A stretch of 64,000 nt of DNA from assembly GCA_028534125.1 (NCBI GenBank), contig CM052816.1, forward strand, positions 9,612,001 to 9,676,000. Direction: 5' to 3'. This stretch comes from Lama glama. Its lineage: Eukaryota. This document shows positions 17,350 to 64,000 of the stretch, one piece after another; the first letter of the stretch is position 1, and every line of letters begins with the position of its first letter. A program made the translations under genes and the position numbers. The notes under the pieces are model-generated. The model searched no databases. It was not told the DNA's origin and saw nothing but the letters and a program-made list of their open reading frames with translations.

Positions 17350-20060
17350 TTAGAGCCAAGCTCATCTTTCTACTGGTCAATATTGAGCAGGCACTTATAA
17401 TTTGCATCAAAAGTTAAAAGAACAACAAAAAAAGAGATTTCCTTTTTAAATTTTCATAAGGCTAACACTACAGCTGAACAAATGGTTAAACAAAAGAATT
17501 CCTTTAGTAACAGAGGAAATGTGTCAAACTCCACTTATTCTGAATCGATACTTTACAGCTGACACTTTTAATTTATTATTCTCTTTTTTGTTGTAGCTGC
17601 TGCTTTTAAGGCACAGAAATCTTCAGCCAGGAACAATACACTTTTAACCCAGATGGCTTAGACCTACTTGACTGGTAAGTGAGGAAGTACCACTCACCTA
17701 ACCACCATCCTCCTCCCCTAAAGGTGCTCTGGTCCATAAAACCTCTAGGCTCTATACAGCACACCACTAAAAAATGAGTAAGATATGAGCCCCATCTCCA
17801 GGAAGCTCACAGCTTTAACCTAAATCCCATCTCAAACTAGATTCTCTTAGTTTATCCATTTCCCAATAATTACTCTATCTTGTATTTAACTATCACTCTC
17901 ATGACATTTTAGACAACTCATTCTCCTGAAAAAGACAGATGCAAGTTTGCTGAGAGAACTTAAGTGATCCAAAACGAGAGGATGCTGAGTGGACAGAAAA
18001 CTATCAGGGTGTCCAGTTGTGTTTCATGGTGGGAATCAACTAGATGGGAAAAGAGAGATGGGTTACTTCCACCACAGGAGCTGCCGGTGACATAAGTGAG
18101 GAGAACAGGTCTCATACAGATGATACTTTATTACCTGGGGCTTTTTTGTTTTTAATGGAGGCTGTCAGAAAGCCAACTGTCTGCTCACTAATGACAAATG
18201 AAAATATTAATTTTCCAGAATAAAATTGAAGCCCCAAATCACATACTACAGTTTTCGAAAGTTGTTCTGTTTGTACAAGGCTAGCCTAGATATGTTAACT
18301 TCAGAATCACAAAAATGAAGAGTAAGAAGGGACCTCAAAGATTACCTGGCCTAATTATAGTAACAGTTCTTACTGTTGTCTTGTACAGCAACTTTACTCA
18401 CTGAGCCATTCAGTGTGTTAACCATTTTACATGTTTTCTTATCTATTCTCACAACCCAGTGAAAAAGCTTATCACAAATGTAAAAAATGAACTTGACCTC
18501 TGTCAATGTCCATCCTCTTTTGTTGTACATTACACATTACCTCTTACCAAAGAATGCGTAATGCTCCACCTTCTTTACAAAGATGGTGTGAGAGTATGGT
18601 TCAAACATATGTAAACCATAAAGTGCTATACAAAAACCTTAGTTAGCATTACTGTGTAGAGAATCAGAGTTTAAACTCCAGAGACTAGACCAAGATGGCA
18701 TTAGCAAAGCATGGTTAGTGAGATCTTATTCTAGCCAAAGACTGTTTGCCTTGACTCTCTCACATTTGTTGCAGGGATGGGAAGCCTTGGGCTCACAGGT
18801 ATTTATCACAGTCTAAAAGAAATCAGCAATGTGTAGACAAATTCTTTTCTAATTTGATAGGGGCAGAGATTTTAATTGAGATATTGTACCACACGGGAGC
18901 TCTGCTATCTTGTCTCTTTATGTAGTGCATTAACCCCATCTCCACAATTCCTACTGGCCTAACCTCTATTAAAAGTAAATCTAATAATGAGAAATGGCAG
19001 TCATTTTCACAGTACCCTACTTTTTTTCTGTCTTGCTATAAATAATCACTCTCTGGAACATGATAAATCCTTCTCTCTTAGAATCGTTTCTTTTGAGTAT
19101 CTGAATGCAAATATGGTTCGCCTCCCACCAAGCTAAGTTCTAGCCTCAAGACTTTGCAATGGTCTTCACAAAAAGATACAGTGATAAACTCTGGTCAACA
19201 CGGTAGAACAGAACAAGACAATTATCTCCCTAGCCCTTCACTTCTATTAAGGCCCCATCCCTCCTTGGCCAGCCCCACAGCTTCATCACACTTTCATCAA
19301 CAATATTCAGGATATGAATATTGTTGATAAAAGGCAGTAAAAAACAAAAGACATTCAAAATTGCTAAACGACAGTAACTAAAGGGCACCGATTAACAAAT
19401 TGGTATTAACTGAAAAGAAGCCTGATTAGCCATTAAATATTAATGTTTCCCTTTCAAGTATGCTCTGCTTAACTAAAGTCATCAACTTTCTTTTCTGGTG
19501 GTCTTTTTAACTGAAGTCCATTTGTTGTGGTTAGACCACTAGCTCGGAGTTCTTCACCTGCAAGGCCAATGCATTATTTGAGAAATTGCCAAGACCTAGT
19601 ATAGGCCTTTTAAAAGTGCTTGAGAAATGAAAGTTCCAGAAGTACAATTTCTGTGGTCCACAACTAGAGCAGCTTTACAAAAATTAAAAAATATTTTTTT
19701 TAACCAAAAGATGCCATTAAGGGGTACAGGAAAACTATGAAAACTTGCATCGTGTTAGAAAGGGCACTTTGTCTAACATGGCAGATATATATTTAATCAA
19801 TCAAGGGTCAATAAGTAATCTCCAATCGTGTATTTGTGAAACAGACTAATGTAGTTTCTTAAGGAGTAGGAAATGAAAAGAGACCACTAAAACAGGTAAA
19901 ATGTATTTTATCAACCTAAATAATTTAGATAAAATTCAGCCTCCCTACCTACAAGATGCCTTAGACTGCCTATTCCAAGACAACAAGGAACTTTTGATTG
20001 AAACATTATTATCAGTTTCCAGTAGGGTTCCCCTGTACATTACAGGCTAAATCCACTTAC

Positions 20061-20194
20061 CACTTGGCATGTACTCCCACCACCGCCCTGCACAGAGATC
20101 CACAACCCTCACAACTCTCAGATATAGGGTTACTGCTTCCTTTAGCTTCCGGGAAAGACATTCCATACACATGATATCCTGCAGAGGGAGGTAC
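20061..20194 (-). CDS. FBXO38: FBXO38 exon 3 (F-box: [44 protein letters not shown])
   Basis: Acceptor tctcacaaag|G TAC, donor AGTG|gtaagt; 134 nt. Confidence 0.96.
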
Positions 20195-23100
20195 CTTTGT
20201 GAGAAAAAGAAACTCATATTTATCAAATGGGTAAGTACTTCCTCTCACTGACAGGTTATTTTTTTCCTTCCTCCAATCTCCCACCCCTCGAATGAAATAA
20301 GACATTAGGAATATTCACAGAGTTTTAAGACTAATATGCATATATAGCTTTTTACTTAAAAAAATGAATCAGCAAATACTCAAGCATCTAAATAAAGTAG
20401 TGAGCTTGCTCCACAAAGCAGCTAATACATCCTGCTTTTCTCCTTTTAAGTTTTGACCAACAAAGAAAATAAAAAAAAAAAATAGGAAGGAAAAAATTTC
20501 AGTATATTTCAAGGCATGATGCTAAGGAAACGTACAAAATATCAGAGAGAACTGATCAATCTGAACCTAACCAGTATTATTTCATAGCTTTTATAGAATC
20601 CATTTCCCACCATGGCTAAAGAAGAATTCCTCTGCTCCTGTTTACCACCACCCAGAAACTCTATTATTTTCTTCATCAACAAATATGTACACTAGGTTTA
20701 TATACTACACATTTTTTTCCTAGATCTTTTACCTTTTAATCACATACTCTTATTAATAAAAGTATTGCATAAGCATTAAGTGAAAACACTCATCTGATTT
20801 ACAATTTCCTCTTTTCCCACGTCCCATTATCTCTTCCTTCCTGAAACTTTTCACCTACTTTTGTTCTGTTTTCAGTAATACCAATATATATTCTGAAAGA
20901 TAGAAAATCTCATCTCTCTTTCTTAACACACCTCCAGGCATAACCTAGATTAAATTTTTTTTTTTAAAGGCAAAAGCTACACTTTCTTGACTCAGTATTG
21001 TGTCACTGTTTCCGCAATTTTGCAAGCTAAGTTGTTTTCTTGTTTGCAACACAGGCCTCCCCTAGTCCTTTTTCTTCCCTTCTCTGTTCTGCTGTGTTCT
21101 CCACCCCTCCGGCGATCAGTTGACTTTGGCCGATGGAAGGCAGGGCAAAGGCTTTCAGCTAGTCTCCTAGCTGAACTAAATTCCTGAACATCCTTTATTG
21201 GTATCCTTAACCTTAACTACACCTCTCTAAATAATCCCTTTATTAAATTATCTTTAGATTCCAGCCAAGTATAGCTTCTTTCCTGCTAGAACCCTCATTG
21301 ATATAGTGGATGCTATTATTATTTCACTTTACAAGTGGTAAAATTGGCTCAGTAAAGTTAACCAGTAAAAAGTCAACAGCTAGGTAAGAGAGGATGAGGA
21401 GGGATGTCAACAGGTGGGTCTGTCTAATTCCTAAAAATTAAGCTAATTCTAAAGGGAAGACCAAGTATGCCTGCTGAATATTTCTCTGCTCCATTCTCTT
21501 CTATTTCTGGCCCCCCTGCTTTTTCCTTTAAAACTATTTAAATAAAGAGAATAAAGTCACATCAAATTTTCTACCAAAAAAAAAGCATTACTGCTAACTT
21601 AATTTATATTTTCCATAACTTAGACATAAGTAGGATAATTTTCAGAAACTATAGGACTACACATTTTATAAACAATGAAAAGTATTGAATTTGTTTTCTA
21701 AATAGTTTTGCCATTAAAACATTGCTTACCCAAATCATTGATTTTTATCCAAAGTATCTGCCTGAGTTAATATTATACCCCCTTGAAATATAAGTATCAG
21801 TAATCTTAAGATTATTTTATATCATATTTGCCCTTAGAAAATAAAATATATTTTTACTTCAAAGATAAGGCAAATGAAATATATTTTAGAAAAGATAAGT
21901 TTAACATGGCAGGTACAGCAAAGATTAGGTTTCTTTTAAGGAAGCTGTAGTTTTTCTTGTTTCATGAAAACATGCTAAATAGTTACTACAAGACTACAAA
22001 ATGATTCCTCAAAGAAAAACTTCAGAAGCCTAAAAATAAATGTTTATTTTTAGAATAAACATCTCATACCAAATTCAAGTACCCAGCTTAGTTCACAGCT
22101 CTCCTTCTCTTCTGCCAATCTGCTGCATGTTTTTTCATTATTACCAGGGTAACAGCCTTCTACTTGACTCCACCCCTTCTATTTGAATATTCTATTTGAA
22201 CTGCAAAATCTGATCTACTCTCAATTTAAAATATCATCAAATTTGTTCAGAATATGTCCTACCATTAGTTAACAAACATCTACTCACATCCCTAGAAACA
22301 ATTTTACGTATGCTTTCTTCTAGAAGAATTTTAATAGCTTCACTGTTTAATTCACTGATAAGTTTATAATTCAGTTTTCAGATATAAGAGATAAGAACAT
22401 GCTTTTATTATTTTCTTCAAATGTTTTTAGGTTGTGAATTCATCACTGAATAATTCACTCAGTTTTTCCTCATTGATGTGACTACCAATTTTATCATGAG
22501 CTAGGTCCCCATGTATATTTGAATCTACATAAGGAGCCTACACATGTTTATGTTTTACCCAAATGTCTGGCAAGATATCTTCTTCAGTACCAAATCTTTA
22601 ATTATTGTATAATTTTAGAATATATTTGAACATCTGATAGAGTTAGATTCTTTTTCTGAAAAATTTTGGCTACAGACTTTTTTTTTGCCAGATGAACTCT
22701 GGTATCCTGTTATGTTAAAAAAAAAGTCTGTTCTTTTAATTGGGCCTTCTATTTTCAGACGGAACTGAAACAAAACTACATTGTGTTACAGAATAACAAA
22801 CTGCAGAAGATAGAGGCTAAAAATTTATACTAGAAAAGAAAAACAAAGTGCCGTGGTTCCCTAAAGTAACTCTCTGTATCTATTCTAAAACGTATTAATC
22901 TGCAGATATTCAGTAATTTTTTAAAAATGCAAAATGTTTCTAGGTACTTCATATATGGAAATATCCCCGAGGTAAATAATGTAAAACAACAGAAAATCCA
23001 GATGCTTAGAAAAGTTAATTGTATTATATAAGAGAAACAGTGGAAGCAATTCAGATCAAAGAACATAAGAAAAAAGGTGAAAAGATGATTACTATGTTAC

Positions 23101-23736
23101 AGTCAATGGAAGAGAAAGTGGTGACTAAAATGATACCTGTGAAGACTATGTAGCAATGTGAAAAAGGGCACAACACAGTCATAACCATTAACACTTACCA
23201 AGCATTTATGCCATGCAGTGTATTAAGTGCTTTAAAAGCACTGTCTCACTGAATCCTTATAATTTCATCTTTATATCTACCACTGGTCCAGTGAGTAAGA
23301 GATTCAAACTCCAGTCTCTCCCTCTAGACACAAAGTATGTTAAGATTTGTTTATTTGAGTGGATAATGAAAGAAGAGAGTAGGGGAAATTGGAATGACAG
23401 CTTTTTTGGTTGTTTTTGTTTGTTTTTTTTAATAGTAGTTGTACTACAGTTTAGATAAAAACATAATTTAAAAAGATTTTGAAAAAAGTTTATCTCAAAA
23501 CAACTTTAATATGTGCACTGCATGTAGTAATGATGGGTATGACTTCATAAAACTGGTTTTCAATTACTTACATATATGTACATACTAAGCAAAATGTGTT
23601 TCTTACTATGGACTGTAGCCAAGAAGTCTGAAACCACTGCCTTACGTTATATGCACATGCCACCGTAATAACGAAAGCCAGCAAATCTATCAGTCATTAA
23701 GAATTCCAAGAAGCCTGGAATGTTAACAGTTTAGAC

Positions 23737-23911
23737 AACGGCTGTCCAATAGAACTTTACAAAGGAAATACTCTCTGTCTTCACTGTCTGTGCCATCCTG
23801 TACAGTAGCCACTAGCCACATACAGCTAGTACAACCGAGGAACTGGACATTTTACTTAATTTAAATGTCACAGGTAGCTAGTAACTACCACGCTGGACAG
23901 CACAGCTCTAG
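23737..23911 (+). mobile_element. MER3-like hAT MITE
   Basis: gctgtccaatagaacttt...gtagccactagccacat...ctggacagcacagctctag. Confidence 0.7.
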
Positions 23912-23965
23912 GTTTGCTCCTACTTACACAGTCTAGTTGGTGAAAGTCAACCACACAAAACCTTA

Positions 23966-24148
<183 letters not shown>

Positions 24149-40355: not shown

Positions 40356-40361
40356 TTTATT
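40356..40361 (-). terminator. Candidate poly(A) signal AATAAA of the SPINK-like gene
   Basis: First AATAAA on minus, ~185 nt after the stop codon. Confidence 0.55.
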
Positions 40362-40545: not shown

Positions 40546-40615
40546 TCATGTTTCAGGTGTTTCGGTCTTTCTGCATTTTCCACTGTGTTGAACTTCTAGA
40601 GTGAGGTTCAAAGCT
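40546..40615 (-). CDS. Kazal-type serine protease inhibitor (SPINK-like) exon 4: (I)ALNLTLEVQHSGKCRKTETPET*
   Basis: Acceptor atttcccttag|A, phase 2 matching exon 3; carries Kazal H-x-G-x-C with Cys VI 17 residues after Cys V; TGA at 40548-40546. Confidence 0.88.
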
Positions 40616-40722
40616 CTAAGGGAAATTAATACAAATATTTAGTGACCATCTGTATTAAATACAACCTTTCTTCCTCCTACTTAGTTGTACTATTACAGGA
40701 ATTTTAAGTGAATACAGTTCTT

Positions 40723-41040
40723 TTTTTTTTTACATTTTTTATTGATTCATAATCATTTTACAGTGTTGTGTCAAATTCCAGTGTTCAGCACAATTTTTCA
40801 GTCATTCATGGACATATACACACTCATTGTCACATTTTTTTTCTCTGTGATTTATCATAACATTTTGTGTATATTTCCCTGTGCTATACAGTGTAATCTT
40901 GTTTATCTATTCTACNNNNNNNNNNNNNNNNNNNNNNNNNNNNNNNNNNNNNNNNNNNNNNNNNNNNNNNNNNNNNNNNNNNNNNNNNNNNNNNNNNNNN
41001 NNNNNNNNNNNNNNNCCCCCCCCCGGTAACCACAAGTCTG
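40723..41040 (-). mobile_element. Young 5'-truncated L1 3' end with perfect TSD (contains a 100-N gap at 40916-41015)
   Basis: Poly(T) on +, L1 3' UTR sequence, TSD taagtgaatacagttctt at 40705-40722 and 41041-41058. Confidence 0.88.
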
Positions 41041-42062
41041 TAAGTGAATACAGTTCTTGATTTGTAAACTCCTGACTTACAAATATCCCATACAAAGATT
41101 TGCCTCTCTCCTCACTACTTCCTTCACTCTGGAGACCCTTCTAACCTTGTTATCATGGTGAAAAATTATTAGAGCTTTTAGCAAAGGTGTAAACTTGTAT
41201 GTTAAGAAGTGGGGGAGGGACCCTGAGGAAACCCCGGGAAAATCTTTTTACTTTTCTCCAGGATTATCTTACTTGTAAAACAACCGTAATTAATGTGTAC
41301 CTACTGAGTTCAGCTCTTTGAGAGTCACTGTAAAAGTTCTCTATGAACTTCAAACAGGAAGAATTCTTAATGTGGGGGACAAAGAGCATAATGGTCAAGA
41401 ACAGGATAAAAAGATAACTGTGGAAAACGTTAGTGAAAATACTTATCTTATTCAGCAGAAATATAATAACAGCAGCAAGCCAATTACTACATTTCATGAT
41501 AAATTATAGTCAGTGGACTTTTGCAGTTGCATTTTTCATGAAGTGGTCCATTAAAAAAAATTAACAATAGCCACATAGGAGCTACTGTGAAATAATAAAA
41601 ACATTGTTCATCTTCTGTAACTGTACTTCCTATTTGACTTGGGCAAAACAATTAACTTTGGAGTCCTTTCTTGTTATGTATAAAAAGGGAATATTCTCAT
41701 CCCTGCCTACAATTCCGTATTGGTATGGCTTTCTTAGGTGCCCTGTTTAGGAAAATACTTGCTAAAAGCTATAGCAGGCTTCTAATTATATACCTGTGTT
41801 ATCTAAAGTAATAGCCTGCGAGTAATAATATCTTATTTTTTCCCTGTTTTCCTGCACCTAGCACAGTGTTTGGAAATTACTAGGTGTTTATTAAACATTC
41901 ATGAAACAAAAGGATAAACATGAAAGATTGTTTTGAAAAATTCGAAGACTCTGGTCAAATATAAGATTCTAATCAAGATAATGCAAAATTAAGCTTGAGG
42001 GCTCTGGATGTCAGATTCCTGGACTTGTTTTTTGGTTTCTCCCCTCATAAGCCATGATATCT

Positions 42063-42064
42063 CA

Positions 42065-42142
<78 letters not shown>

Positions 42143-43663
42143 CATGTTTTTATTGACATATAGTCAGTTTACAATGTGTCAGTTTCTGATGTACAGCATA
42201 ATGCTTCAGTCATTCATGAACATACATATATTCATTTTCATATTCTTTTAAACTATAAGTTATTAAAAGAGATTGCATATAGTTCCTTGTGCTATACAGT
42301 ATACACTTGTTGTTTATCTATTTTATATATAGTACTTAGTATCTGAAAAATCTCGAACTCCCAATTTGTCCCTTTCCACCCTCTTCTCCCTTGATAACCG
42401 TAAGTTTGTTTTCTATGTCTGTGAGTCTGTTTCTGTTTTGTAAATAAATTTGCCTTTTTTTTTTTTTAAGATTCCACATACAAGTGATATCATGTTGTAT
42501 TTTTCTTTCTCTTTCTGGCTGACTTCACTTAGAATGACACTCTCCAGGTCCACCCATGTTGCTGCAAATAGCATTATTTTATTCTTCTTTATGGCTGAGT
42601 AGTATTCCATCATATAAATATACCACAACTTCTTTATCTAGCCATCTGTCAATGGACATTTAGGTTGTTTCCATGTCTTGGCTATTATAAATAGTGCTGC
42701 TGTGAACATTGGGGTGCGTGTATCTTTTTGAATTAAGGTTCCCTCTGAATATATGCCCAGGAGTAGGATTGCTGGATCATGTGGTAAGTCTATTTTCAGT
42801 CTTTTGAGGATCTCCATACTGTTTTCCATAATGGCTATACAAAACTACATTCCCACCAGCAGTGTAGGAGGATTCCCTTCTCTCCACAGCCTCTCCAGCA
42901 TTTATCCCTTGTGGACTTCTGAATGATGGCCATTCTGACTGGTGTGAGGTGATATCCCATTGTAGTTGTGATTTGCATTTCTCTGATAATTAGCGACATT
43001 GAGCATTTTTTCATGTGTCTGTCGGCCATTTGTATGTCTTCACTGGAGAATTGCTTGTTTAGGTCTTCTGCCTATTTTTGGATTGCATTGTTTGTTTTTT
43101 TGTTATTAAGTTGTATGAGGTGTTAATATATTTTGGAAATTAAGCCCTTGTCAGTCTCATCTTTTGCAAATATTTTCTCCCATTCTGTAGGTTCTCTTTT
43201 TGTTTTACTTATGGTTTCCTTTGCTTGCAAAAGCTTATAAGTTTAATTAGGTCTGATTTGTTTATTGTTGCTTTTATTTCTATTGCCTGGGTAGACTGCC
43301 CTAGGAGAACATCACTAAGATTTATGTCAGAGAATGTTTTGCCTATGTTTTCTTCTGAGATGTTTATTGTGTCTTGTCTTATATTTGAGTCTGTAAGCCA
43401 TTTTGAGTTTTTGTGTATGGTGTGAGAGAGTATTCTAACTTCACTGAGTTATATGCAGCTGTCCAGTTTTCCCAACACCATTTGCTGAAGAGACATTCTT
43501 TACTCTTTACTATACCCCACTGTATATTCTTGCCTTCTTTGTCAAAGATTAATTGACCAAATGTTTTTGAGTTTATTTCTGGGTGCTCTATTCTGTTCCA
43601 TTGATCCATATGTCTGTTTTTGTGCCAATAGCATGCTGTTTTGATTACTGTAACTCTGTAGTA
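42063..43663 (-). mobile_element. 5'-truncated L1 (ORF2 C-terminus + 3' UTR) with a microsatellite tail, inserted into a MIR
   Basis: ORF2 peptides [34 protein letters not shown] ataagccatgatatct at 42047-42062 and 43664-43679; (TG)n(TA)n at ~42065-42142. Confidence 0.92.
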
Positions 43664-44914
43664 ATAAGCCATGATATCTTGAATGAGTCCCTACATTCTC
43701 CAAACCTCAATTTCATCATCTGTAAAATGGGAGTCAGTACCAATACCTACTTAGTAGAATTGTTTTGAATATTGAATGAGAGAATTCCTAAGTAGCACCA
43801 AGCACAGTGCCTGGCATATAATAAGCATTAAATTAAAACCAGAGATTGACACATTGTAATTGACTGTACTTAAATTTAAAAAAAAACTAATAAAAATCAG
43901 GCATATTTAGAAGTTTTTACGAGTCCCACCATGTATTCTTTCTAATATTTTATATTTTGGTATATATGTAATACATACATTTTCAAAAATTAGATCATAC
44001 TGTGTACACATCGTTTTATATCCTTACATTTCCCCCCCTTTTTTAAAACTTAACACTGTGTCATGATTATTTGTAGAAAACTTAATATATAAGGTCCAGT
44101 GGGACTTTTTTTTTAATCGTGTATGATTTAAAAAGGATGAGCCTTTAAGCAAAATGTCCAGCCAGAGGTTTTTGATGTTCTCAAGCAGATAAACCTTCTG
44201 GCTGCCCCAGAATGCAGAAACAAAGTGCCAGGTAGAACCTGAACTGGGGTCTGAAGGATGCAGGGAGGCACATGTGCAATTAGTGTACAAATATAGATAT
44301 GTGCTTGGCCCTTAATCTTATCTTGTGCAAGCTCTGGCCCCACATTTACAATGTCTTGATAACCTGAAAAGAAGGCAACTGTAGGCTAAAGAAGATACAT
44401 GTGAAAGTTGGTGACTCAGCTCATTCTTAGGTATGAAATCTCTGTGAAATTGCTAGGTGTAAGAAGCAGAATGGATTTCTCAAGTGGCCTGGGACAAGAA
44501 GAAAGTTGGCAGTAGAACATAGGTGTACTAAACATCAGGGAGAGGCATGGACAAGGATGTTTAAATAGCAGTACCGCCCTGGGAAAAGGAGCAGGTTTTA
44601 TTTGAGAAAACTGTACTTCCCTTCAGTCCTGCCATTGTCTTTTGAGATGCTAAGAACTACCTGGGGATGAAAACTGGAAAATACCAAACTTTTTGCCAGT
44701 AATTTCAGAGGGCGTTGGAGCATTTATATTTGTAGCATTACCATAAACAGTGACACAACTGCTTGCCCAAACTGCTTCCCAGGAAGTATTCATTACAGAT
44801 ATTCTATAAATTATTGAAGTCATCTATTATAACACTTATTTCCTGTTGCATGTTGCTCTTAGAACTATTATGCTAAAGAGATCTATATATTATCCTTTGA
44901 TAACACCTTTAAAA

Positions 44915-46352
44915 CTTGCTGAAGGACCCAGAATAGTCCAAACAATTTGAAAAACAGCAAAGTAGAAGAATGTACCCTTCCTAATTGCAAAACTTGCTGC
45001 AAAACTACAGTAATCAAGACTGTGATACTGGCATAAGGATGGAAATATAGACTAATAACATAAAACTTAAATAAACCCTTACTTATATTTATGGTCAATT
45101 GATTTTCAACAATACAGTGGAGAACAGTTTTCAACAAATGGTGCCAAGACAACTGGATGTCCATGTACAAAAAGTGAAGTTGGACTTTTGTTGAAGTTCC
45201 CCAACCTCGTACGATATACAGAAATTAACTCAAAATGGATCAAAGACATAAGTGTAAGAGCTAAAAATTGTAAAACTCTTGGAAGAAAACTCAGGAGTAA
45301 ACCTCCACAACCCTGAGTTCATCAGTGGTTTCTTAGATATGACAACAAAAGCATAAGCAACAATAAATAAACTGGACTTCATCAAAATTAAAATCTTCTG
45401 TGCTTCATAGGACACCATTAATAAAGTGAAAAGACAGTCCCAAAAATGGGAAAAAATATGCAAATCAATAACCGATTAAATACAATAAATTGTATCCAAA
45501 ATATATAAAGAACACTATAACTGAACAATAAAAAGGTAAATAATTGATTAAAAAGTGAGCAAAGACTTTGAATAGAGATTTTTCCAAAGAAGATACACAA
45601 ATGGATAATCAGTCCATGAAAAGATATCAAACATAATTTCTCACTAGGGAAATTGAAATTATAACCATGGGATACCACCTCACACCCATTAGGATGGTTA
45701 TTATATATATATAAAAAAAGATGGACACTAACTCATTTCTGGTAAGGCTGTGGGAAAATTGGAACCCTCACATGTTGCTGATGGGATTGTAAATTGTTGC
45801 AGCTGCTTTGGAAAACAGTTTGACAATCCCTTAAAATGTTCAGACATAGAGTTACTATATGACCCAGAGATCCCACTCCTAGAAATGTATACCCAAGAGA
45901 AATGAAAAGATATGTCCACACAAAACATTGTACATGAATGTTCACAGAAATGTTATTTCTAATAGCCAAAAAGTGTAAACTACCCAATGTCTGTTAATGG
46001 ACAGATGGATTGAAAAAAGCGGTATAGCCATACAATAGAGTATTAGCCATAAAAAGGCATGAAGAACTGATACATTCTACAATATGGATGAACCTTGATA
46101 GTCTTATGATCAAGGAAAGAAGCCAGAAACAGAAAGCCACATATTGTATGATTCCATTTATATTGATTGTCTAGAAGAGACAAATCGATAAAGAGAATAT
46201 AAACTAGTGATTGCCAGGTACTGGGGGGATGGTAGAATGGATACAGGTTTATTTTTGTTGGAAATTATTCTGAAGTTAGGTAGTGGTGATGGTTTCACAA
46301 CTCTGAATGTACTAAAGACTGCTGGATTGAGTATTTTAAAAGAGTAAATTTA
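44915..46352 (+). mobile_element. Old L1 (L1MB-like) ORF2 3' part and 3' UTR
   Basis: aaggacccagaatagtccaaacaatttgaaaaa..aaaactacagtaatcaagac..aaccctcacatgttgctgatggg..ggtagtggtgatggtttcacaactctgaatgtactaaa. Confidence 0.88.
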
Positions 46353-46724
46353 ATATTTACCCTGCTTTTAAGCTAAAAGCCTAAGGATAAATTCTTAGCA
46401 CTGAGAAGTTATTTTTCATTTCCTTGAAACCTTGGGATCCTAAGAAAGTCTGAAGAAAGGATGGTAAGAGAGAGCTAGTAATAAATTTGGGAGAAGGAAT
46501 AGCAATCATCTGTACAGTTTCTCTTCCCTCTAAGGAACCTCAGTGTGTGCCATGGAATTAGGACCACCACCTGGGAGGCCTACGAGATGAGATTTTGAGA
46601 ATGTCTGGAAAATACTGTTGTACTCTTTGAGGATGACTATGGTATAGGTTATGTGGTCTGAGTGAAGGAAAGAGTTGGTAAAATATGGAAAGAGAACTAG
46701 TCGCTGGTCTGAAAGCACATTTGT

Positions 46725-46838
46725 GGTAAGGTGACCTACTATTTCAGTTTGTCTGAGACTGTCCCACCGTAGCACTCTAAGTTTCTCATCCCAAGAAAAC
46801 GCTCAGTCTCAGGCAAACCAGGTTGGTCGATCTTCTAG
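46725..46838. mobile_element. MER94-like hAT-Blackjack MITE
   Basis: taaggtgacc..gtttgtctgagactgtccc..ctcagtctcaggcaaaccaggttggtc. Confidence 0.55.
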
Positions 46839-48108
46839 TTGGAAGCAACATAACAAGGATACTGCTGGCCTGCTGTGTGACTGGCATTATGCTGGACCTC
46901 CTTTATGCATTATCTTTCTCACTTCTCACAGCCAACCTCCAGGTAATTACTGAAATTCAGTTACCTGTCCTAGCTCATATAGTCTAAATAGAAGAGCTGA
47001 AATTCCAATTCAAAGTCTATAGCATCAGTCTTCACTCCGAACCACACACTCAGTTCTGAAAGACTGAGCCAATACAACAAGTGATAAATTTTCTTTTAAA
47101 TTACCTATGAAGAAAGAGTTAAGTTTAGAAATGCTTTTTATGCCCATTACCATACCCATTCTCCCTAGAACTCACTCATACAATCATTTATTCATTTATT
47201 CAGTAAGTACTTATGGTGCTTAAGTTGGGCCAGACACTGTTAAGTGTTCGAAATAAACCGAAATCTTGCTTTCTGACTTCATGGAGCTTATGTTTAGTAA
47301 AAGGTCAAAAATAAAGACACAGAAAATAAAATATTTATGAGTTATCATAAGAATTATGAGGGAAACAGAAGCATATTAACTTGGAAAATATCAGAGGTAA
47401 ATCTAGGTAGGATAGAATGTATCTATAAAGAAGGAATATTCAGGCTGAAAACTAGACGATGAAAAAGACCCAGCCTATGAAAATCATGGGGAAAACATTC
47501 TTACAGGAGAGGACAGTTTGCCCAAAGGTTCTGAAGCAGGAAAGAGCTCTGTACATTTGAAAATACGTGGAAAGAGGAATCAGTGTGGTCAGAGCATATT
47601 TAGCAAGTGAAGCAGGAAATATAACCTCAGATTTGTAAAGGTTTGTAAAGTCTTAAGGTTTGGAGGAGTTACTAGATTTGCCAATATCACTTAACTGCAG
47701 AGACAGGACTCAACCAAAGTCTTCAGGCTGAGTGCTGTGATTTGTTGCTTTTAATTGTTGTCTTGAAAAGGATGATTTTCCGTACAGTTATGATTTTCAA
47801 ACATTTTAGGAACAAAACTTTTTTATGTAAAATCTCATGTTGAAACCTCATGTTCAGCACAGGCAAAGGGAGGCTTCTCTGCTGGAGTTGTAGGTGGGAC
47901 TCAGAATCTCAGTTGTTTAGTCCGTGTTACCCCCATACCCCTTGGGTTCAGCCAGTGGAACTGAAACCCCAATGACATTGTTTTTAGTTTAGAGAATCAC
48001 ATCTTAAGGAGTTCACACATTTCCCCAAATATGTTGGAGTGTTATCAGTCAGCTACACATTAAATTCTCAAAAGAGGGTTCTGTTTTGGTTTTGATGTTT
48101 TCACTTAC

Positions 48109-48239
48109 ATGTTAGCAAAACAGTACACGCAGAAGTTAGGATAGGTAACGTTATTAGAGGCACATAATAGGCTGACTCTTATGGAGCATACGCGTTTCCG
48201 CTGTACAGACTTCTTTTGATAATAACTGCATGAAAGTTC
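48109..48239 (-). CDS. Kazal-type serine protease inhibitor (SPINK-like) exon 3: ELSCSYYQKKSVQRKRVCSIRVSLLCASNNVTYPNFCVYCFAN
   Basis: Acceptor ttttgttttag|GAA, donor AT|gtaagt; 131 nt, phase 0 to 2; Kazal signature C-x7-C-ASNNVTYPN-x-C-x2-C. Confidence 0.93.
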
Positions 48240-49608
48240 CTAAAACAAAATTCATAGGTCAGACTCTCTTAATGGCTTCTAATATAAGTACTTGGTTGTT
48301 TTATTTTGCACAGAGATGAGATAATGATAAGTCTTTTTTTAAACTTTGAACCTGAAAATGTCTTTATCTTAAATTTAGCGGAGTCTTTGGGATTTCTTCT
48401 CTGAAAGACAGCTGAGACAATACAGCCCTGATTCTTGGCTGTGTAATGGATAGCTGTGACTTGTTAGAAGGGGAGATTATTCTGGGAAATGGGAGTCCAG
48501 GGGCCTTTGGACTCATTTTAGTTTCATCAAAACCCACCCTTTAACTCTTGTGCCTGGATAGGGTCACCCTGTGTGGTCCTGCTCTGGTGTTGGCCACAGT
48601 TCAGTCTCTTGAATATAAGGGAGCTGGAATAGTGAGGGAAGAAGCTACCAGGTTTGGATTTTACCACCATCTCTCCATTTTATTTTGATTCCTTCACTAC
48701 TACCAGAGTTGGAGAATTCTGGCTGGTCTTAGAGGAACTTGAGTGACAGAATAATTTGCAGGCAAAAAAGAGACTTGGGAAGTTCATGAAAATTGTGTAA
48801 TGAGCAGATTAGGAAAGTGCTGCCACAATTCTCCGCTTTATAGGTTGAGATCACAGTTAGCGTGTATATCCAGGTTATCAGGCCACTGCCCTGTCTACAG
48901 AACTTCAGTGGCTCCCATTACTTACAGGAATGCTCCCACACTTCAGTCACTTGGTTCATGATTCCTTCCAAAGTCATGTGTCATTTTTCTTTAAAACCAT
49001 TTTTCTTGAATTGGCTGCCTTTTAAAACTTGACTACTCACATTAGATTCATTCTAAGCATGAATATCCATGATGTCTTGAATTTGAAGTTGTAATTATAT
49101 TTTTCCTAACACACATTTTGAAAGATATAATTGTTGCAATAAAAGATATCCATGGGCATATTCACTAAAATCATCACTAATACTATTAGAAGGTATTCAA
49201 GTCACTCTTGGGAAATACTGTTTATGTCTCTTATCTCCTAAATATTTTAATGATTAAGCTCACATAGTTTGCTCAGAAGGCTTTACCAAAGAATTGATTC
49301 TTTAGTGGGTTCCTAAAGGAAGAAATGACTTCTGAAATTGGATATAAGTATGGAAAGAAGGATAGTTTAATTAGGGGGAATTCTAATACGGAAACAAACT
49401 GGACTGGCAGGGACCCCAAAATAGTTAGCTAAAACCTGAAGTAAGAGAAGGAGAGTTCTCCTTTTAGAGAGAAAGAGGCTGGGTCAAGGAGGATATGCAA
49501 AAAGTTTATCCTAAGGATACTAAAAGTCAGTGCTTTCAGAAGGGAGCCTCCTCAATCAGATTTGCATTTTAAGAAAGCCCATTCTTCTGATTATGGAGAA
49601 GATTAGCA

Positions 49609-49803
49609 CTGGGATTGACAAACTTTGCCCATTAAGAGCCAGGTAGTGAATATTTTCCTATTAAAAGCCATAGGTTCTCTGTTGCTCAGTTCTGTTACTG
49701 CAGCCTGAAAGCAGCCAGAGACGCTGTGTAAACAAATGATTGTGCCTGTGTTGCAATAAAACTCTGTTTTCAAAAACAAGTGGCCATAGTTTGCCAACCT
49801 CTG
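49609..49803 (+). mobile_element. MER58A-like hAT MITE
   Basis: gacaaactt..aagagccaggtagtgaatatttt..aaagcagccagagac..gtgcctgtgttgcaataaaact..ggccatagtttgccaacctctg. Confidence 0.75.
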
Positions 49804-50135
49804 GATTAGACTAAGTGCAAGGAGATGGCTCTTGCAATAATATGGGCAAGAATTGAGAAGGGCTTGAATGGAAACATCAGCAGTGAACTTGGAGGAAAAA
49901 GTATTAAAAAAACAAAACTTAGCTTTAGTTGCTGGTAATAGATAAGGAGGTGAAAGAGCAGTAAGAGATAGGGATGTGTCCTGGTTTTCCTCAGAACCAT
50001 ATAAACTGGCATTTCTATAGATCAAAATGGTCAAATATTAGCAGTTACATATGGTTTAATATGGGTCAACCTAAAAGAAATGCTATATGCTTACGATTGG
50101 AAAAATCATTCTTAGGCAGGAAGTAGCAGACTTAC

Positions 50136-50176
50136 CTCGTAGTCAGTGTTACCAGGATTGTTTGCAAAAAAAATAT
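50136..50176 (-). CDS. SPINK-like exon 2: (H)IFFANNPGNTDYE
   Basis: Acceptor cttttttctag|AT, donor GAG|gtaagt; 41 nt, phase 1 to 0, as expected for the short second SPINK exon. Confidence 0.82.
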
Positions 50177-51326
50177 CTAGAAAAAAGGATCCAAAAAAAT
50201 GTAGTGTTGAGACGTGAACAACTAATTCACCCATTATGTAATCCCATGTAAATTAATTACCATGAAAATCATGGAAAAACACGTGGCTCCACCCAAGCTT
50301 TATCTGGCCATGCCTGATTCCCACTGTTTACTTCTTCTCTTGCCTGAGACGCTTAATGTGCCACCTGAGAATTCAACCTTAGCCCATTCCTGCTTTAATT
50401 CTGACCTTAGGCCGGAGAGATTTAAACCCAAGTTTCATCCTCTGGGACTCAGCATATCATCCGCTACTGGGCATCTCACACATTGTGTGGACTCATTTTA
50501 GAGAAAAGTCTAGTTCTTGATAGTTGTCCTCCTAGTCACCTGCTAACAGAACTCTTAGATACCTGCCTTCATTTTTTAAAATTATTATTTCCTGTCTTGA
50601 AATACTCTTTTTCCAAAATCTCTCTGCTTCTAAGGAAGCCTCTTCCTTTGTTCGGGCCTCTGTGTCAACAGGTGCTTACCCAGACTATTAAGGATTCCTG
50701 TTACCTTCGTACCTTATACCCATTTCATAGCCTTGACTTCTTTCAGCTGCTGCAGCTGAGGCTTCTTGCCTCCCCTTCAGCCTGCACCATCCTGCCAGCA
50801 GATTCAGTTTGCCATCATGGACTCCCTTGTTGGTGGCATTTTGCTGGAGTTAGTTAGGAAGAGCTGAGCCCTCTCTTGAGCTTTGTTTTGGTAGCATCGG
50901 GTTGTCCTGTAATGGTAAGCCATGTCCAAAACTGACACTTCTTTGTGTACGAGGCATTTGTGTGCATTCACACACAAAATACAAGTGTGTGGCAATGTCT
51001 GGTGGGCAAGGACTAGGAAGAAGCAGGAGAGAGGATATTGATTATCAACTCGGAAACCAATTATTTGTCAAATGTTAGTTACACCCTTTATGGATCATCC
51101 CTTAAAATGTCTTGAGTCTAAACCTGTCTTTGGCAGAATTCTTGGGATGTTAGAAAATGAATTGAACCACTGATACTCATTTTAGTTGAGGCCTTGAATT
51201 CTTTATCTCTGAGAGAAACTTCAAAGTTTCACAAATCTCTACATCTAAAAACTAGTTACTGTCGGCTTGTTACTTCCCTTAGATTAATTGTTTACCCCGT
51301 CCTGAGATTCTTTGATAAATCCTTAC

Positions 51327-51372
51327 GTGTGAAATAGCCAAAAGCCAGGACAGCCACAAAGAAAGTTTTCAT
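51327..51372 (-). CDS. SPINK-like first coding exon, signal peptide MKTFFVAVLAFGYFT
   Basis: aagATGA start, hydrophobic stretch, donor C|gtaagg; 46 nt, phase 1 matching exon 2. Confidence 0.8.

Positions 51373-51678: not shown

Positions 51679-51717
<39 letters not shown>
51679..51717. repeat. (TA)n microsatellite
   Basis: Directly visible. Confidence 0.95.
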
Positions 51718-51873
51718 ACTAGCTAGAAGAAACAAATGTGAAAAAGATGAACTTAATGAGTAATTCTGGGAAACTATTTCAAAATTTACGTATCTGCCTT
51801 TAACACCTGCTCCCCTCGACCCAAAGATTCTGATTCAGTAGATACAGAGTGTGACTCAAGCCATATAACACAT

Positions 51874-52826: not shown

Positions 52827-53326
52827 NNNNNNNNNNNNNNNNNNNNNNNNNNNNNNNNNNNNNNNNNNNNNNNNNNNNNNNNNNNNNNNNNNNNNNNNNN
52901 NNNNNNNNNNNNNNNNNNNNNNNNNNNNNNNNNNNNNNNNNNNNNNNNNNNNNNNNNNNNNNNNNNNNNNNNNNNNNNNNNNNNNNNNNNNNNNNNNNNN
53001 NNNNNNNNNNNNNNNNNNNNNNNNNNNNNNNNNNNNNNNNNNNNNNNNNNNNNNNNNNNNNNNNNNNNNNNNNNNNNNNNNNNNNNNNNNNNNNNNNNNN
53101 NNNNNNNNNNNNNNNNNNNNNNNNNNNNNNNNNNNNNNNNNNNNNNNNNNNNNNNNNNNNNNNNNNNNNNNNNNNNNNNNNNNNNNNNNNNNNNNNNNNN
53201 NNNNNNNNNNNNNNNNNNNNNNNNNNNNNNNNNNNNNNNNNNNNNNNNNNNNNNNNNNNNNNNNNNNNNNNNNNNNNNNNNNNNNNNNNNNNNNNNNNNN
53301 NNNNNNNNNNNNNNNNNNNNNNNNNN
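52827..53326. other. Assembly gap (500 N)
   Basis: Run of N. Confidence 1.
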
Positions 53327-53984: not shown

Positions 53985-55756
53985 TGGCATTATTTCATTC
54001 TTTTTTTATTGCTGAGTAATTCTCCATTGTGTGTATGTCTGTATACACACACACACACACACACACCTTCTTTATGGACATTTAGGTTGCTTCCATGTCT
54101 TGACTATTGTAAACAGTTCTGCTGTGAACATTGGGGTGCACGTATCTTTTTGAATTAGAGTATTCTCCAGATATATGCCTAAGAGTGGGATTGCTGGATC
54201 ATAGGGCAATTCTATTTTTAGCTTTTTAAGGAAACCCCATATCGTTTTCCATAGTGACTATCAATTTACATTCCCACCAACAGTGTAGGAGTGTTCTCTT
54301 TTCTCCACACCTTCTCCAGCATTTGTTATTTGTAAACTTTTTATTGATGGACATTCTGATGAATGTGAGGTGGTAACTCATTAGAGTTTAGATTAGTGTT
54401 CTTCTGATAATTAGTGATATTGAACATCTTTTCAAGTGCCTCTTGGCCATCTGTGTGTCGTCTTTGGATAAATGTCTGTTTAGGTCTTCTGCCCACTCTT
54501 TTTATTGGGTTGTTTGTGTTTTTGTTATTGAGTTGTATGAGCTGTTTATATATTCTGGAAATTAAGCCCTTGTCAGTTGCAATGTTTGCACATATTTTCT
54601 CCCATTCCATAGACTGTCTTTTTATTTTGTTTATACTTTCTTTCACTGTGCAAAAGCTTGTAAGTTTAATTAGGTCCCATTTGTTTATTTTTGCTTTTGT
54701 TTCTGTTGCCTTGGTAGGCTGGATTAGAGAACATTGCTATGATTTATATCAGAGAATGTTTTGCCTATGTTCTCTTCTAGGAGTTTTATGGTGTCACATA
54801 TTATATTTAGGTGTTTAAACCATTTTGAGTTTATTTTTGTATATGGTGTGGTGGAATGTTCTAATTTTACTGATTTACGTGTGGCTGTCCTGCTATCCCA
54901 ACACCACTTGCCAAAAAGACTATCTTTTCTCCATTGTATATTCTTGTCTCCTTCGTCATAGATTAATTGACCATACGGGTATGGATTTATTTCTGGGCTC
55001 CCTATTCTGTTCCATTGAACTATTTCTGTTTTTGTGCCACTACCATGCTGTTTTGATTACTGTAGCTTTGTAGTATTGTCTGAAGTCTGAGTGGGTTATT
55101 CCTCCAGCTTTGTTCTTTTTCTTCGGTATTGCTTTGCCAATTCTGGGTCTTTTGTGATTTCGTATAAATTTTAGAATTGTTTGTTCTATTTCTGTGAAAA
55201 ATGTTCTGGGTAATTTGATAGGGATTGCATTAAATGTGTAGATTGCTTTGGATAGTATGGCCGTGTTAACAATATTAATTCTTCCAATTCAAGAGCATGG
55301 GATATCTTTCCATTTCTTTAAATCATCTTTAATTTCTTTAATCAGTGTTCTATAGTTATCTACCTGTAAGTCTTTCGCCTCCTTGGTCAGGTTTATTTCT
55401 AAGTGTTTTTTTTATATGTGATTTTAAAAGGGATTGCTTTTTTACTTTCCCTTTCTATTTTATCATTTGTGTAAAAAAATGCAGCAGATTTCTGTATGTT
55501 GATATTGTATCCTGCTACCTTGCTGAATTTGTTTACCAGCTCTAGTAGTTTTCGTCTGGAGTCTTGAGGGTTTTCTTTATATAGTATCATGTCATCTGCA
55601 GATAATGACAGTTTTACCTCTTCTCTTCCAATTTGGATCCCTTTAATTTCTTTTTCTTTTCTGACTGCTGTGGCTAGAACTTCCAGTATTATGTTCAATA
55701 GAAATGGTGAGACTGGGCATCCTTGTTTTATTCCAGATTTTAGCAGGAAGGCTTTC
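53985..55756 (-). mobile_element. L1 ORF2 fragment (RT to C-terminus), lacking the 3' terminus
   Basis: Peptides [50 protein letters not shown]. Confidence 0.92.
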
Positions 55757-56549
55757 CTGAAGATCAGGAATTTAGACATAAGGTCAGAGGAGTACTGATA
55801 TAAACGTGCTTCTCTGAGGATTGGGCTGAATGGGGCTATAGTTGGTTAAACTTCTGCTTCTGATGAAAATGGGCCCCAGAGTTTGGAGCCTATTAATGTT
55901 CACACATGGGTTACCTGTTTACTTCTTGAAAGGGAAATATTGCAGCATGTGGGAACCAGGAAATCCTTGATACAAAGTCATTTGAACTCCTCAAAAATGT
56001 CTTTCAATAGCACGGCAGTTCTTTATTCCAATGTAAACAAGACCTTTCAGGCAACCCCGGGTTAATACTGAAAAAAAAAAATTTTTTTTTAAATACCACT
56101 ATGAAATAGAGGTTTCTTTTCCTAAGGAATTCTGAAATATTTTCTTTGTCTATTGGTTGGGGGGAGGTAGAGAGAGTCTTAAGGTTTGTTTGAGAATTTA
56201 CTTAAAAACTCAGCCTGTGTAGCATATCCTTTCCATATTCTCGTGTTATTTTACATTCTGAAATCACTGCTGTCCTTTGACCTTGCTTTCTTGGAAGAAC
56301 AGTTTTATCAGGTTACTGTACCTGTTTTGCAAGCAATTAGGAAGAACACATTTAAAATTTTTAATTTTTATTTTTAAATAATTTTTGCAAGAATAGAACA
56401 AATAGCTTATTATGTACTCTTCAAGACTCCATTCAAATTTTGTTGTCTGTGCCAATAATGCCTTTATAACAAAATGACCCCATCCAACAGGATTTAATAT
56501 TATTAGGATTGCAGTACTCCCTATCAAAGTCTTTTCCTGCCCTTTTTGG

Positions 56550-61468: not shown

Positions 61469-64000
61469 TTTTTTTTAATTGAAATATAGTCAGTTTGAAA
61501 TGTATTAATTTCTGGTGTACAGCATAATGTTTCAGTCATGCATGCAAATATTCATTCATATTCTTTTACATTGTAGATTACTATAACATATTGAATATAG
61601 TTCCCTGTGCTATACAGTATAAGCTTGTTGTTTATCTATTTTATATATAGTAGTTACTGTATGCAAATCTCAAAATCCTGATTTATTCCTTCTCACCTGC
61701 TTTATTCCCTGGTAACCATAAGTTTGCTTTCTATGTCTGTGTGTCTGTTTCTGGTTTGTAAATAAGTTTGTGTCCTTTTTTAAAATTCCACATATAGGTG
61801 ATAACATATGGTATATGTTTTTCTCTTTCTGGCTTACATCACTTAGAATGACAATCTAAGGGTCCATCTGTGTTGTTACCAATGACATTAGTTCATTTCT
61901 TTTTTAATGGCTGAGTAGTATTCCACTGTATAAATATACCACAACTTCTTTATCCAGTCATTTGCCAGTGGACATCTAGGTTGCTTCTACATCTTGGCTA
62001 TTGTAAATAGTGCTATTATGAACATTATGGTGTAGTTATGTTTTCAAATTAGAGCTTTCTCCAGATATATACTCAGGAGTGGGATTGCTGGATCATATGG
62101 TAAGTCTATTTTTAGTTGTTTAAGGAACGTCCATACTCATTTCCATAGTAGCTGCACCAAATTACATCCCCACCAACAGTGTAGGAGGGTTCCCTTTTCT
62201 CCATACCCTCTCCAGCATTTATCCCTTGTGGACTTTTGAATGATGGCTATTCTCACTGGTATGAAGTGATACCTCATTGTAGTTTTGATTTGTATTTCTC
62301 TGATAATTAGCAATATTGAGCATTTTTTAATGTTCCTATTGGCCATTTATATGTCTTCATTGGAGAATTGCTTGTTTAGGTCTTCTGCCTATTTTTGGAT
62401 TGGGTTGTTTGGTTTGTTGTTGTTGTTTTTATTGTTGCTGTTATTAAGTTCTGTGAGCTATTTATATTCTTTGGAAATGAAGCCCTTATCAGATGCATCA
62501 TTTGCAAATATTTTCTCCCATTCCGTAGGTTGTCTTTTTGTTTTGCATTTAGTTAACTTTGCTGTATGAAAGCTTATAAGTTAATTAGATCCAGTTTTTA
62601 AACTTTTGCTTTTGTTTCTATTGCCTAGGTAGACTGCCCTAGGAGAATATTGCTAATATTTATGTCAGAGAATGTTTTGCCTATGTTTTCTTCTGGAAGG
62701 TTTATTGTGTCTTGTCTTATGTTTAAGTCTTTAAACCATTTTGCATTTATTTTTCTGTATGGTGTGAGGGAGTGTTCTAACTTCATTGATTTACATACAG
62801 CTGTCCAGCTTTCCCAACAGCACTTGGTGAAGAAACTATCTTTTCTCCATTGTATATTCTTGCTTCCTTTTTTTTTGTTTTTTTGTTTGTTTGTTTTTGT
62901 AGATTGCTTGATCGTAAGTGTGTGGGTTTATTTCTAGGCTCTCTGTTGTGTTCCATTGATCCACATGTCTGTTTTTATGCCAATACCATGCTGTTTTGAT
63001 TACTGTAGCTCTGTAGTATCGTCCAAAGTCTGGGGAGGGTTATTCCTCCAGCTTCGTTCTTCTTCAGTATTGCTTTGGCAGTTCTGGTCTTTTGTGATGC
63101 CTTATAAATTTTAGGATTATTTGTTCTAGTTCTGTGAAAAAATGTCCTGAGTAATTTGATAGGGATCACATTAAATGTGTAGATTGCTTTGGGTAGTATG
63201 GCCATTTTAACAATATTCTTCCAATTCAAGAGCATGAGGTATCTTTCCATTTCTTAAAATCATCTTTAGTTCCCTTAATCAGTGTTTTGTAATTTTTCAT
63301 GCGTCTTTCACCTCCTTGGTCAGGTTTATTCCTAAGTTTTTTTTTTTTTCTGTTGTTACTGTAAAAGGAATTTTTTTTTTTACTCTCCTTTTCTGAGTTT
63401 TCATTATTAGTGTAAAGAAATGCAGCTGATTTCTTTATGTTAATCTTGTACCCTGCTACCTTCCCAAATTCTTTTATCAGCTCTAGTAGTTTTTGTGTGG
63501 AGCCTTTAGGGTTTTCTATATATAGTATCATGTCATCCAAATGTAGTGATAATTTTACCTCTTCTCTTCCAATTTGGATCCCCTTTATTTCTTTTTCTTG
63601 TCTGATTGCTATGGCTAGGACTTCCAATACTATGTTAAAAAGAAGTCATAAGAGTGGGCATCCTTGTCTTGTTCTAGATTTTAGTGGAAAGGCTTTCAAC
63701 TTTTCACCATTGAGTATTATGTTGGCTGTAGGTTTGTCATAAATAGCTTTTATTATGTTGAGATATGTTCCCTCTATACCCATTTTGCTAAGAGTTCTCC
63801 TGTTGATGTGGTGTATCATATTGATTAGCATATGTTGAACCATCCTTGTGTCCCTGGCATGAATCAAACTTTATCATAGTGCACAATGTTTTTTGTGTGT
63901 TATTGGAGTCTGTCTGCTAAAATTCTGTTGAGGATTTTTGCATCTATGTTTATCAACAATATTGGTCTGTACTTTCCTTTTTTGGTAGTGTCTTTGTCTG
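61469..64000 (-). mobile_element. L1 (3' UTR + ORF2 including RT), frameshifted; continues past window end
   Basis: Peptides [73 protein letters not shown]. Confidence 0.94.

Follow-up and report, generated by a model that had tools for sequence, protein, structure and literature searches.

Which gene lies at the FBXO38 end of the SPINK cluster in the llama, and does it encode a working protease inhibitor? The question is raised by a stretch of 64,000 nucleotides (nt) of Lama glama DNA, here called the window (C1:9612001-9676000, where C1 is the scaffold deposited as CM052816.1), taken from an assembly of 2.35 Gb in 1,072,352 contigs. A preliminary description of the window, made from its letters, had proposed a four-exon gene on the minus strand for a small secreted Kazal-type protein, and our own reading of that strand confirmed the proposal exactly: four coding exons of 46, 41, 131 and 70 nt (the last including the stop codon; coordinates in Table 1) join across GT/AG borders, in phases 1/0/2, to a 288-nt coding sequence for 95 amino acids (aa) plus stop, with six cysteines. 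The arrangement is not a product of chance. The window gene, as we refer to it below, is an intact gene for a single-domain classical Kazal-type protein with the exon layout of a SPINK.

The three donors read GTAAGG, GTAAGT and GTAAGT, all three acceptors end in AG and are rich in pyrimidines, and phases of 1/0/2 are the norm for SPINK genes. The start codon has an A at -3 and an in-frame TAA nine codons upstream. The product begins with Met-Lys followed by a hydrophobic segment (mean Kyte-Doolittle value of 1.81 over residues 3-20 against -0.52 for the rest), its cysteines at 33, 47, 55, 66, 69 and 87 give the spacing C-x13-C-x7-C-x10-C-x2-C-x17-C, and it carries N-x-T sequons at N59, which is invariant, and N76. 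The polyadenylation signal downstream of the stop implies a 3' untranslated region of perhaps 200 nt. Matching against its own genome returned the gene as a single copy. A loose six-frame scan of the whole window for the spacing from the second to the fifth cysteine (Cys2 to Cys5) found exon 3 and one spurious match, at 55417-55482 on the plus strand, where the pattern occurs by chance inside a stretch rich in long interspersed nuclear elements (LINEs).

With the donor of exon 3 (bases 48103-48108, directly after the exon), an in-frame TAA falls one codon inside intron 3, and retention of intron 3 would yield a product ending after Cys5, without Cys6; several annotated isoforms of the family in other species diverge exactly where exon 3 ends. 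Intron 3 also holds a 100-N assembly gap (40916-41015), about 300 nt from exon 4, and a (TA)n microsatellite lies at 51680-51725, some 310-350 nt ahead of the ATG.

Membership in the Kazal family was seen at the level of both sequence and fold. Exon 3 alone (43 aa) reached 23.2 bits on Pfam Kazal_1 (cut-off 21, E-value 6.8e-5), and 18.0 bits on Kazal_2, under the cut-off of 22.8. The corresponding full-length protein of alpaca, described below, carries both PF00050 and PF07648 in precomputed Pfam annotation, and its Atlas features are generic Kazal clusters only. Across 38 sequences that include distant Kazal proteins, C33, C47, C55, C66 and C69 are invariant and C87 is at least 90% conserved. 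Cys1 to Cys5 are encoded in exon 3 and Cys6 in exon 4 of four, as is typical of SPINK genes, and camelid SPINK7 splits its cysteines between exons 3 and 4 in the same way. A profile built from 23 family members matched ovomucoid third domains at E-values of 2.7e-9 to 1e-7, SPINK7 at 1.4e-5, SPINK1 at about 2e-5 and SPINK6 at 9.9e-5.

An AlphaFold2 model was made for the alpaca protein as a proxy (one residue differs from the window product), and with a more diverse alignment it reached a predicted local distance difference test score (pLDDT) of at least 90 over residues 50-90. Its secondary structure (strands at 54-56 and 61-62, a helix at 65-74, a strand at 81-84) follows the strand-strand-helix-strand order of Kazal domains, and in a Foldseek search with this model the top 28 PDB matches were all ovomucoid third domains, with template modelling (TM) scores by target of 0.73-0.87. 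Among solved structures the best single-domain match, by sequence and by fold, was the turkey ovomucoid third domain (OMTKY3), notably its Ile18 P1 variant (1cso; E-value 2.7e-9, TM score by target 0.85, 37-38% identity), which shares the disulfide pattern of the window product; the Ile of the latter aligns with its P1 residue. On the other hand, OMTKY3 belongs to an avian egg-white protein with three such domains, whereas the window gene encodes a single-domain product of the SPINK cluster; 'ovomucoid-like' is therefore a label of similarity and not of orthology.

How far does the gene extend beyond the llama? A RefSeq alpaca protein named 'ovomucoid-like' is of the same length as the window product and departs from it at a single residue of the 95 (F65 in the window, Y65 in alpaca), which is consistent with the same four-exon model. 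The wider family, as collected here, comprises 36 cluster representatives, from platypus, echidna, dunnart and koala to many placentals (carnivores, bats, many rodents, tree shrew, mouse lemur, armadillo, pangolin, pigs, ruminants and alpaca), and the clusters behind them add cattle, goat, sheep, deer, cats, mustelids and rat. The rodents are represented by rat, Peromyscus, Arvicanthis, Cricetulus, Nannospalax, Jaculus, squirrels, guinea pig, chinchilla and mole-rat. None of the 36 representatives is a protein of an anthropoid primate or of Mus musculus. Homologue searches with family queries gave this family alone, while a search at the level of representatives brought up multi-domain Kazal proteins for the most part, and no match with one domain from outside the family and its monotreme and marsupial relatives. 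In the reverse direction, the platypus protein found exon 3 as its best match in the llama genome (E-value 3.9e-9; the next match, 1.8e-3).

Naming within the family is inconsistent. Most records are called 'ovomucoid' or 'ovomucoid-like' (among the family records are rat XP_006254888.1, 'ovomucoid', and cattle XP_024851022.1), SPINK9 or SPINK9-like names appear in hyena, pangolin, meerkat, rat and one Peromyscus isoform, the name 'Predicted gene, 36368', after mouse Gm36368, is borne by four Ensembl-derived rodent entries, and the squirrel and guinea-pig entries have no projected name. We found no published study of the window gene or its orthologues in the openly available literature: Gm36368 appears only as a row in a table of differentially expressed genes, and, judged by title and abstract, no paper returned for 'ovomucoid-like' is about this gene. 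The orthologue group is thus mammal-wide and predicted by annotation pipelines, with no settled name, assigned human counterpart or published study. The alpaca protein is the single member of its cluster and the only camelid product of the gene in the collection searched; the llama genome itself therefore probably lacks an annotation of it.

What these proteins share most strongly is the core of the domain. In 22 family sequences the mean column entropy is 0.25 bits from Cys2 to Cys5, against 1.6-2.0 bits in the segment before Cys1 and in the tail, and S48, I49, S52, N59, T61, Y62 and N64 are identical in all 22, R50 in 21. The near-invariant Cys2-to-Cys5 core and the Ser-Ile-Arg loop are common to the window product, the alpaca protein and the mammalian orthologues. 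The family loop C-S-I-R-V-S-P-L-C aligns over C-T-L-E-Y-R-P-L-C of ovomucoid and, in 1cso, over the Ile18 variant; the titles of the PDB entries for ovomucoid structures give residue 18 as P1. By this alignment we infer Ile49 to be P1, with Ser48 as P2 and Arg50 as P1'. The P1-P1' pair would be Leu-Lys in dunnart and Ile-Lys in platypus. Y62 and N64 align with Tyr31 and Asn33 of OMTKY3, which are loop-supporting residues.

A mechanism can be proposed on this footing. The hydrophobic N-terminus would be cleaved as a signal peptide, and the Kazal domain would then bind its target by the standard (Laskowski) mechanism through the putative reactive loop Cys47-Ser-Ile-Arg-Val-Ser-Leu-Leu-Cys55, with Ile49 at P1. 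In ovomucoid P1 variants, beta-branched aliphatic residues are poor for trypsin-like and chymotrypsin-like enzymes and well tolerated by enzymes like neutrophil elastase; with an Ile at P1, the expected target would be an elastase-like protease, or else some protease whose S1 site takes Ile. Contact residues of Kazal inhibitors are usually hypervariable, and the near-invariance of the contact loop in this family suggests that there may be one conserved target protease across placentals.

The preliminary description fares unevenly against this record. It had called the gene 'divergent', which is misleading for a family whose core is among the most conserved that we saw. It had also allowed that the gene might be poorly annotated, and this holds to the extent that the llama copy probably lacks an annotation; 'hidden' overstates the case, since RefSeq has the same four-exon product from alpaca and pipelines predict orthologues for dozens of mammals. 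Its suggestion of a loss in human agrees with the lack of an anthropoid protein, as far as the family representatives go.

The chromosomal surroundings place the gene within the SPINK cluster. The next Kazal exon upstream (C1:9681410-9681577) belongs to the SPINK7 orthologue, with 90 bits and an E-value of 3.2e-25 to PDB 2leo. SPINK7/ECRG2 is the neighbour of the window gene on that strand and shares its exon layout and a C-S-x-Y motif at Cys1, but its similarity in sequence is low: the camelid SPINK7 exon and window exon 3 are 32% identical over 44 residues (E-value 0.03), and the family profile scores 28.6 bits to 2leo where the true SPINK7 exon scores 90. Further Kazal exons follow along the scaffold (Table 1), and beyond them an array at 9806094-9875350 that is taken as SPINK5. 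The exon at C1:9709008 was considered as SPINK6 and rejected, with 38 bits only; the true SPINK6 exon is on an unplaced 11.5-kb contig (C266937, 2231-2344, minus strand; 80 bits, 35 of 37 residues identical to PDB 2n52), and scaffold C1 therefore lacks at least one gene of the cluster. A Kazal exon of a different SPINK paralogue (Kazal_1, 42.9 bits) was seen on the small unplaced contigs C27327 and C28116.

On its other side the window gene is followed by exons of an F-box gene, which we take to be FBXO38. Atlas F-box features of 0.91 in these exons are a lead only; none of 10 candidate exons gave an F-box match in Pfam, and PDB searches with them gave nothing relevant. Searches of the llama genome found no other Kazal remnant in the scaffold between the F-box exons and SPINK7. 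Of the cluster's members in the scaffold, the window gene lies closest to the FBXO38-like exons. The preliminary description was right to make the gene cluster-terminal, and right that it is not SPINK7, the latter being the next gene upstream. Between the window gene and SPINK7 we also noted two minus-strand open reading frames (ORFs), 55402-55845 and 63229-63645, that match Pfam RVT_1 (E-values 8e-12 and 6e-8) and are LINE fragments. The one assembly gap in this interval has small contigs extending both of its edges through 199-base overlaps.

Table 1. Features of the window gene, its neighbourhood and the related Kazal exons (positions in the window unless a scaffold or contig is named).
Feature	Position	Strand	Basis or remark
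Exon 1, coding part: residues 1-15 plus one base; ATG and most of the hydrophobic N-terminus	51327..51372	-	Donor GTAAGG; alpaca tblastn; own-genome match
Exon 2: residues 16-29; end of the signal-like segment, with the 5-residue camelid insert	50136..50176	-	Reading and alignment
Exon 3: residues 30-72 plus two bases; Kazal Cys1 to Cys5	48109..48239	-	Kazal_1, 23.2 bits
Codons Ser48-Ile49-Arg50: putative reactive-site P2-P1-P1'	48177..48185	-	Family-profile alignment to ovomucoid third domain; invariance
Exon 4, coding part: residues 73-95; Cys6; TGA stop	40546..40615	-	Alpaca tblastn; own-genome match
AATAAA polyadenylation signal, 185 nt past the stop	40356..40361	-	Sequence; cleavage site putative
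500-N assembly gap, the only gap between the window gene and SPINK7; candidate home of the SPINK9-like contigs	52827..53326	.	
First coding exons of the downstream F-box gene, about 16 kb from the 3' end of the window gene	20050..24148	-	ORFs; F-box features 0.91
SPINK9-like exon 3 contigs	L024 (C700778) 1-133; L025 (C15527) 463-633; also L023, L026, L042, L043		
Single Kazal exons between SPINK7 and the SPINK5-like array	C1:9694039-9694143(-), 9709008-9709139(+), 9745721-9745846(-), 9764340-9764435(+)		Internal stop codons reported for three of the four matches

The position next to SPINK7 raises the question of SPINK9. A second Kazal exon 3 of the SPINK7/9 type is present in the same genome on unplaced contigs, in two haplotype variants with a 199-base overlap. 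It has an AG acceptor, with the Cys1 segment in one frame and Cys2 to Cys5 in the next, owing to a one-base shift in a run of T that is identical in all six contigs compared. Over Cys2 to Cys5 this exon matches the platypus protein at 15 of 28 positions, camelid SPINK7 at 12 of 25 and the window gene at 7 of 17. Comparison with SPINK9 was made by eye and covered the 25 residues of human LEKTI-2 that are printed in PMC2631147; before Cys2, the unplaced exon agrees with the printed N-terminus at 9 of 16 positions and the window gene at 5 of 16, in line with the dissimilarity to SPINK9 already claimed for the latter, and within this genome it is thus not the window gene that stands closest to SPINK9. 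No exon 4 of the SPINK9-like gene was found in a 5.2-kb contig downstream, and contig walks of about 6 kb one way and a few hundred bases the other, and others that started from either side of the 52827-53326 gap and led into it, produced no link to the SPINK9-like contigs. The unplaced exon is probably a broken counterpart of SPINK9. Since such a separate, broken exon exists in the same genome, the window gene is probably a distinct paralogue of SPINK9 and not its orthologue.

Taking these results together, we consider it likely that the window gene is an intact, single-copy gene for a secreted classical Kazal serine-protease inhibitor, the SPINK member nearest the FBXO38-like exons in the scaffold, a paralogue of SPINK9, and directed at an elastase-like target. 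Several points weigh against this. A first structure model, from an alignment of 23 orthologues, was poor (pLDDT 47.8). The placement of P1 comes from alignment, and the class of the target from the biochemistry of ovomucoid. Both camelid sequences, and no others among the 22, have a 5-residue insert (columns 19-23), which lies at the expected signal-cleavage site and puts a Phe at -3. Camelids also have Leu53 where 19 of 22 sequences have Pro (P53L), and F (window) or Y (alpaca) at residue 65, where 18 of 22 have Ser; departures at two nearly invariant positions could mean relaxed constraint. Finally, in published gene lists for human (SPINK7, SPINK9, FBXO38, HTR4) and cattle (SPINK13, SPINK7, SPINK9, FBXO38, HTR4), the window gene fills the exact slot of SPINK9, between SPINK7 and the FBXO38-like exons, while the SPINK9-like contigs are unplaced and their identification is tentative.

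That shared slot raises the question whether the window gene is the true positional orthologue of SPINK9, with the non-primate form ancestral and anthropoid SPINK9 (LEKTI-2) rapidly diverged. The two genes agree in the number of exons, which is four, and in a product of about 90 aa that has one Kazal domain, 13 residues between Cys1 and Cys2 and a signal peptide, the last a prediction for the window gene. Moreover, the hyena, pangolin, meerkat, rat and Peromyscus records would bear out the name, and no anthropoid member of the family was found. Nevertheless, we judge this orthology unlikely. The reactive loops are entirely different, and, by eye, the unplaced exon is the nearer of the two to the LEKTI-2 N-terminus. 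Lemur and tree shrew have the conserved form, so anthropoids would need to have replaced an almost invariant core. The squirrel and guinea-pig entries are nameless, the four rodent entries are called after Gm36368 and not after SPINK9, and the family contains no Ensembl-derived cattle protein even though the cattle lists include SPINK9, an argument from absence. Under the paralogue reading, camelids keep the window gene and have a broken SPINK9-like exon, and anthropoid primates keep SPINK9 and have no annotated member of the family.

A different objection concerns function: in camelids the gene could, despite its open frame, be silent or in decay, or its product could have lost inhibition and act as a Kazal module of another kind. 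The camelid insert and the two substitutions described above would fit such a history, an Ile at P1 is unusual for an inhibitor, and only one camelid protein is on record. We find this very unlikely, considering that the frame, the six cysteines, every splice site and the polyadenylation signal are intact, that the window and alpaca proteins differ at a single residue of 95, and that Tyr62 and Asn64, opposite the loop-supporting pair of ovomucoid, have been kept. There is also a weak lead as to expression, from word matches only: of 22 words sampled from the last exon, a share of 0.36 is present in seven RNA runs from two studies, one of which is labelled as a reproductive-system sample. By our own estimate, a sister species some 3% diverged could account for a uniform share of 0.36. 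Six runs filed under another organism label hold 0.95 of the sampled last-exon words.

The identification with mouse Spink10 put forward as a possibility in the preliminary description is, judged by names, highly unlikely: the sole argument for it was synteny, with Spink10 presumably lying near Fbxo38 in mouse, but none of the 36 representatives bears that name (rodents being well represented, with four Ensembl-derived entries called after Gm36368), and a curated mouse Spink10 with this core would share many 5-residue words with the query and would be expected in the search. Spink10 has no known human orthologue according to PMC10291479, which would fit a gene missing in human.

The preferred reading, an intact SPINK9 paralogue beside FBXO38, can be extended into a history, which we offer as a tentative possibility. 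The gene may be an overlooked and unnamed SPINK that dates back at least to the therian ancestor, has had its loop fixed across placentals, and underwent reciprocal loss with SPINK9, camelids having kept the one and anthropoids the other. If true, the reciprocal loss would explain why the family has received no name based on human and no literature.

In kind, the window gene is that of an ordinary Kazal inhibitor; what sets it apart is that it has no agreed name, human counterpart or study and yet a nearly invariant core and loop. The labels 'SPINK9' and 'ovomucoid-like' on the family's records are unreliable. Human SPINK9/LEKTI-2 is described, in PMC2631147, as a KLK5-specific inhibitor of the skin. 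If the family is indeed absent from anthropoids and distinct from SPINK9, then mouse, rat and livestock would have a SPINK that a human-centred nomenclature has missed, which would bear on how SPINK and kallikrein biology is moved between species, and on how selection and genome-wide association signals in the SPINK-FBXO38 region of cattle are read.

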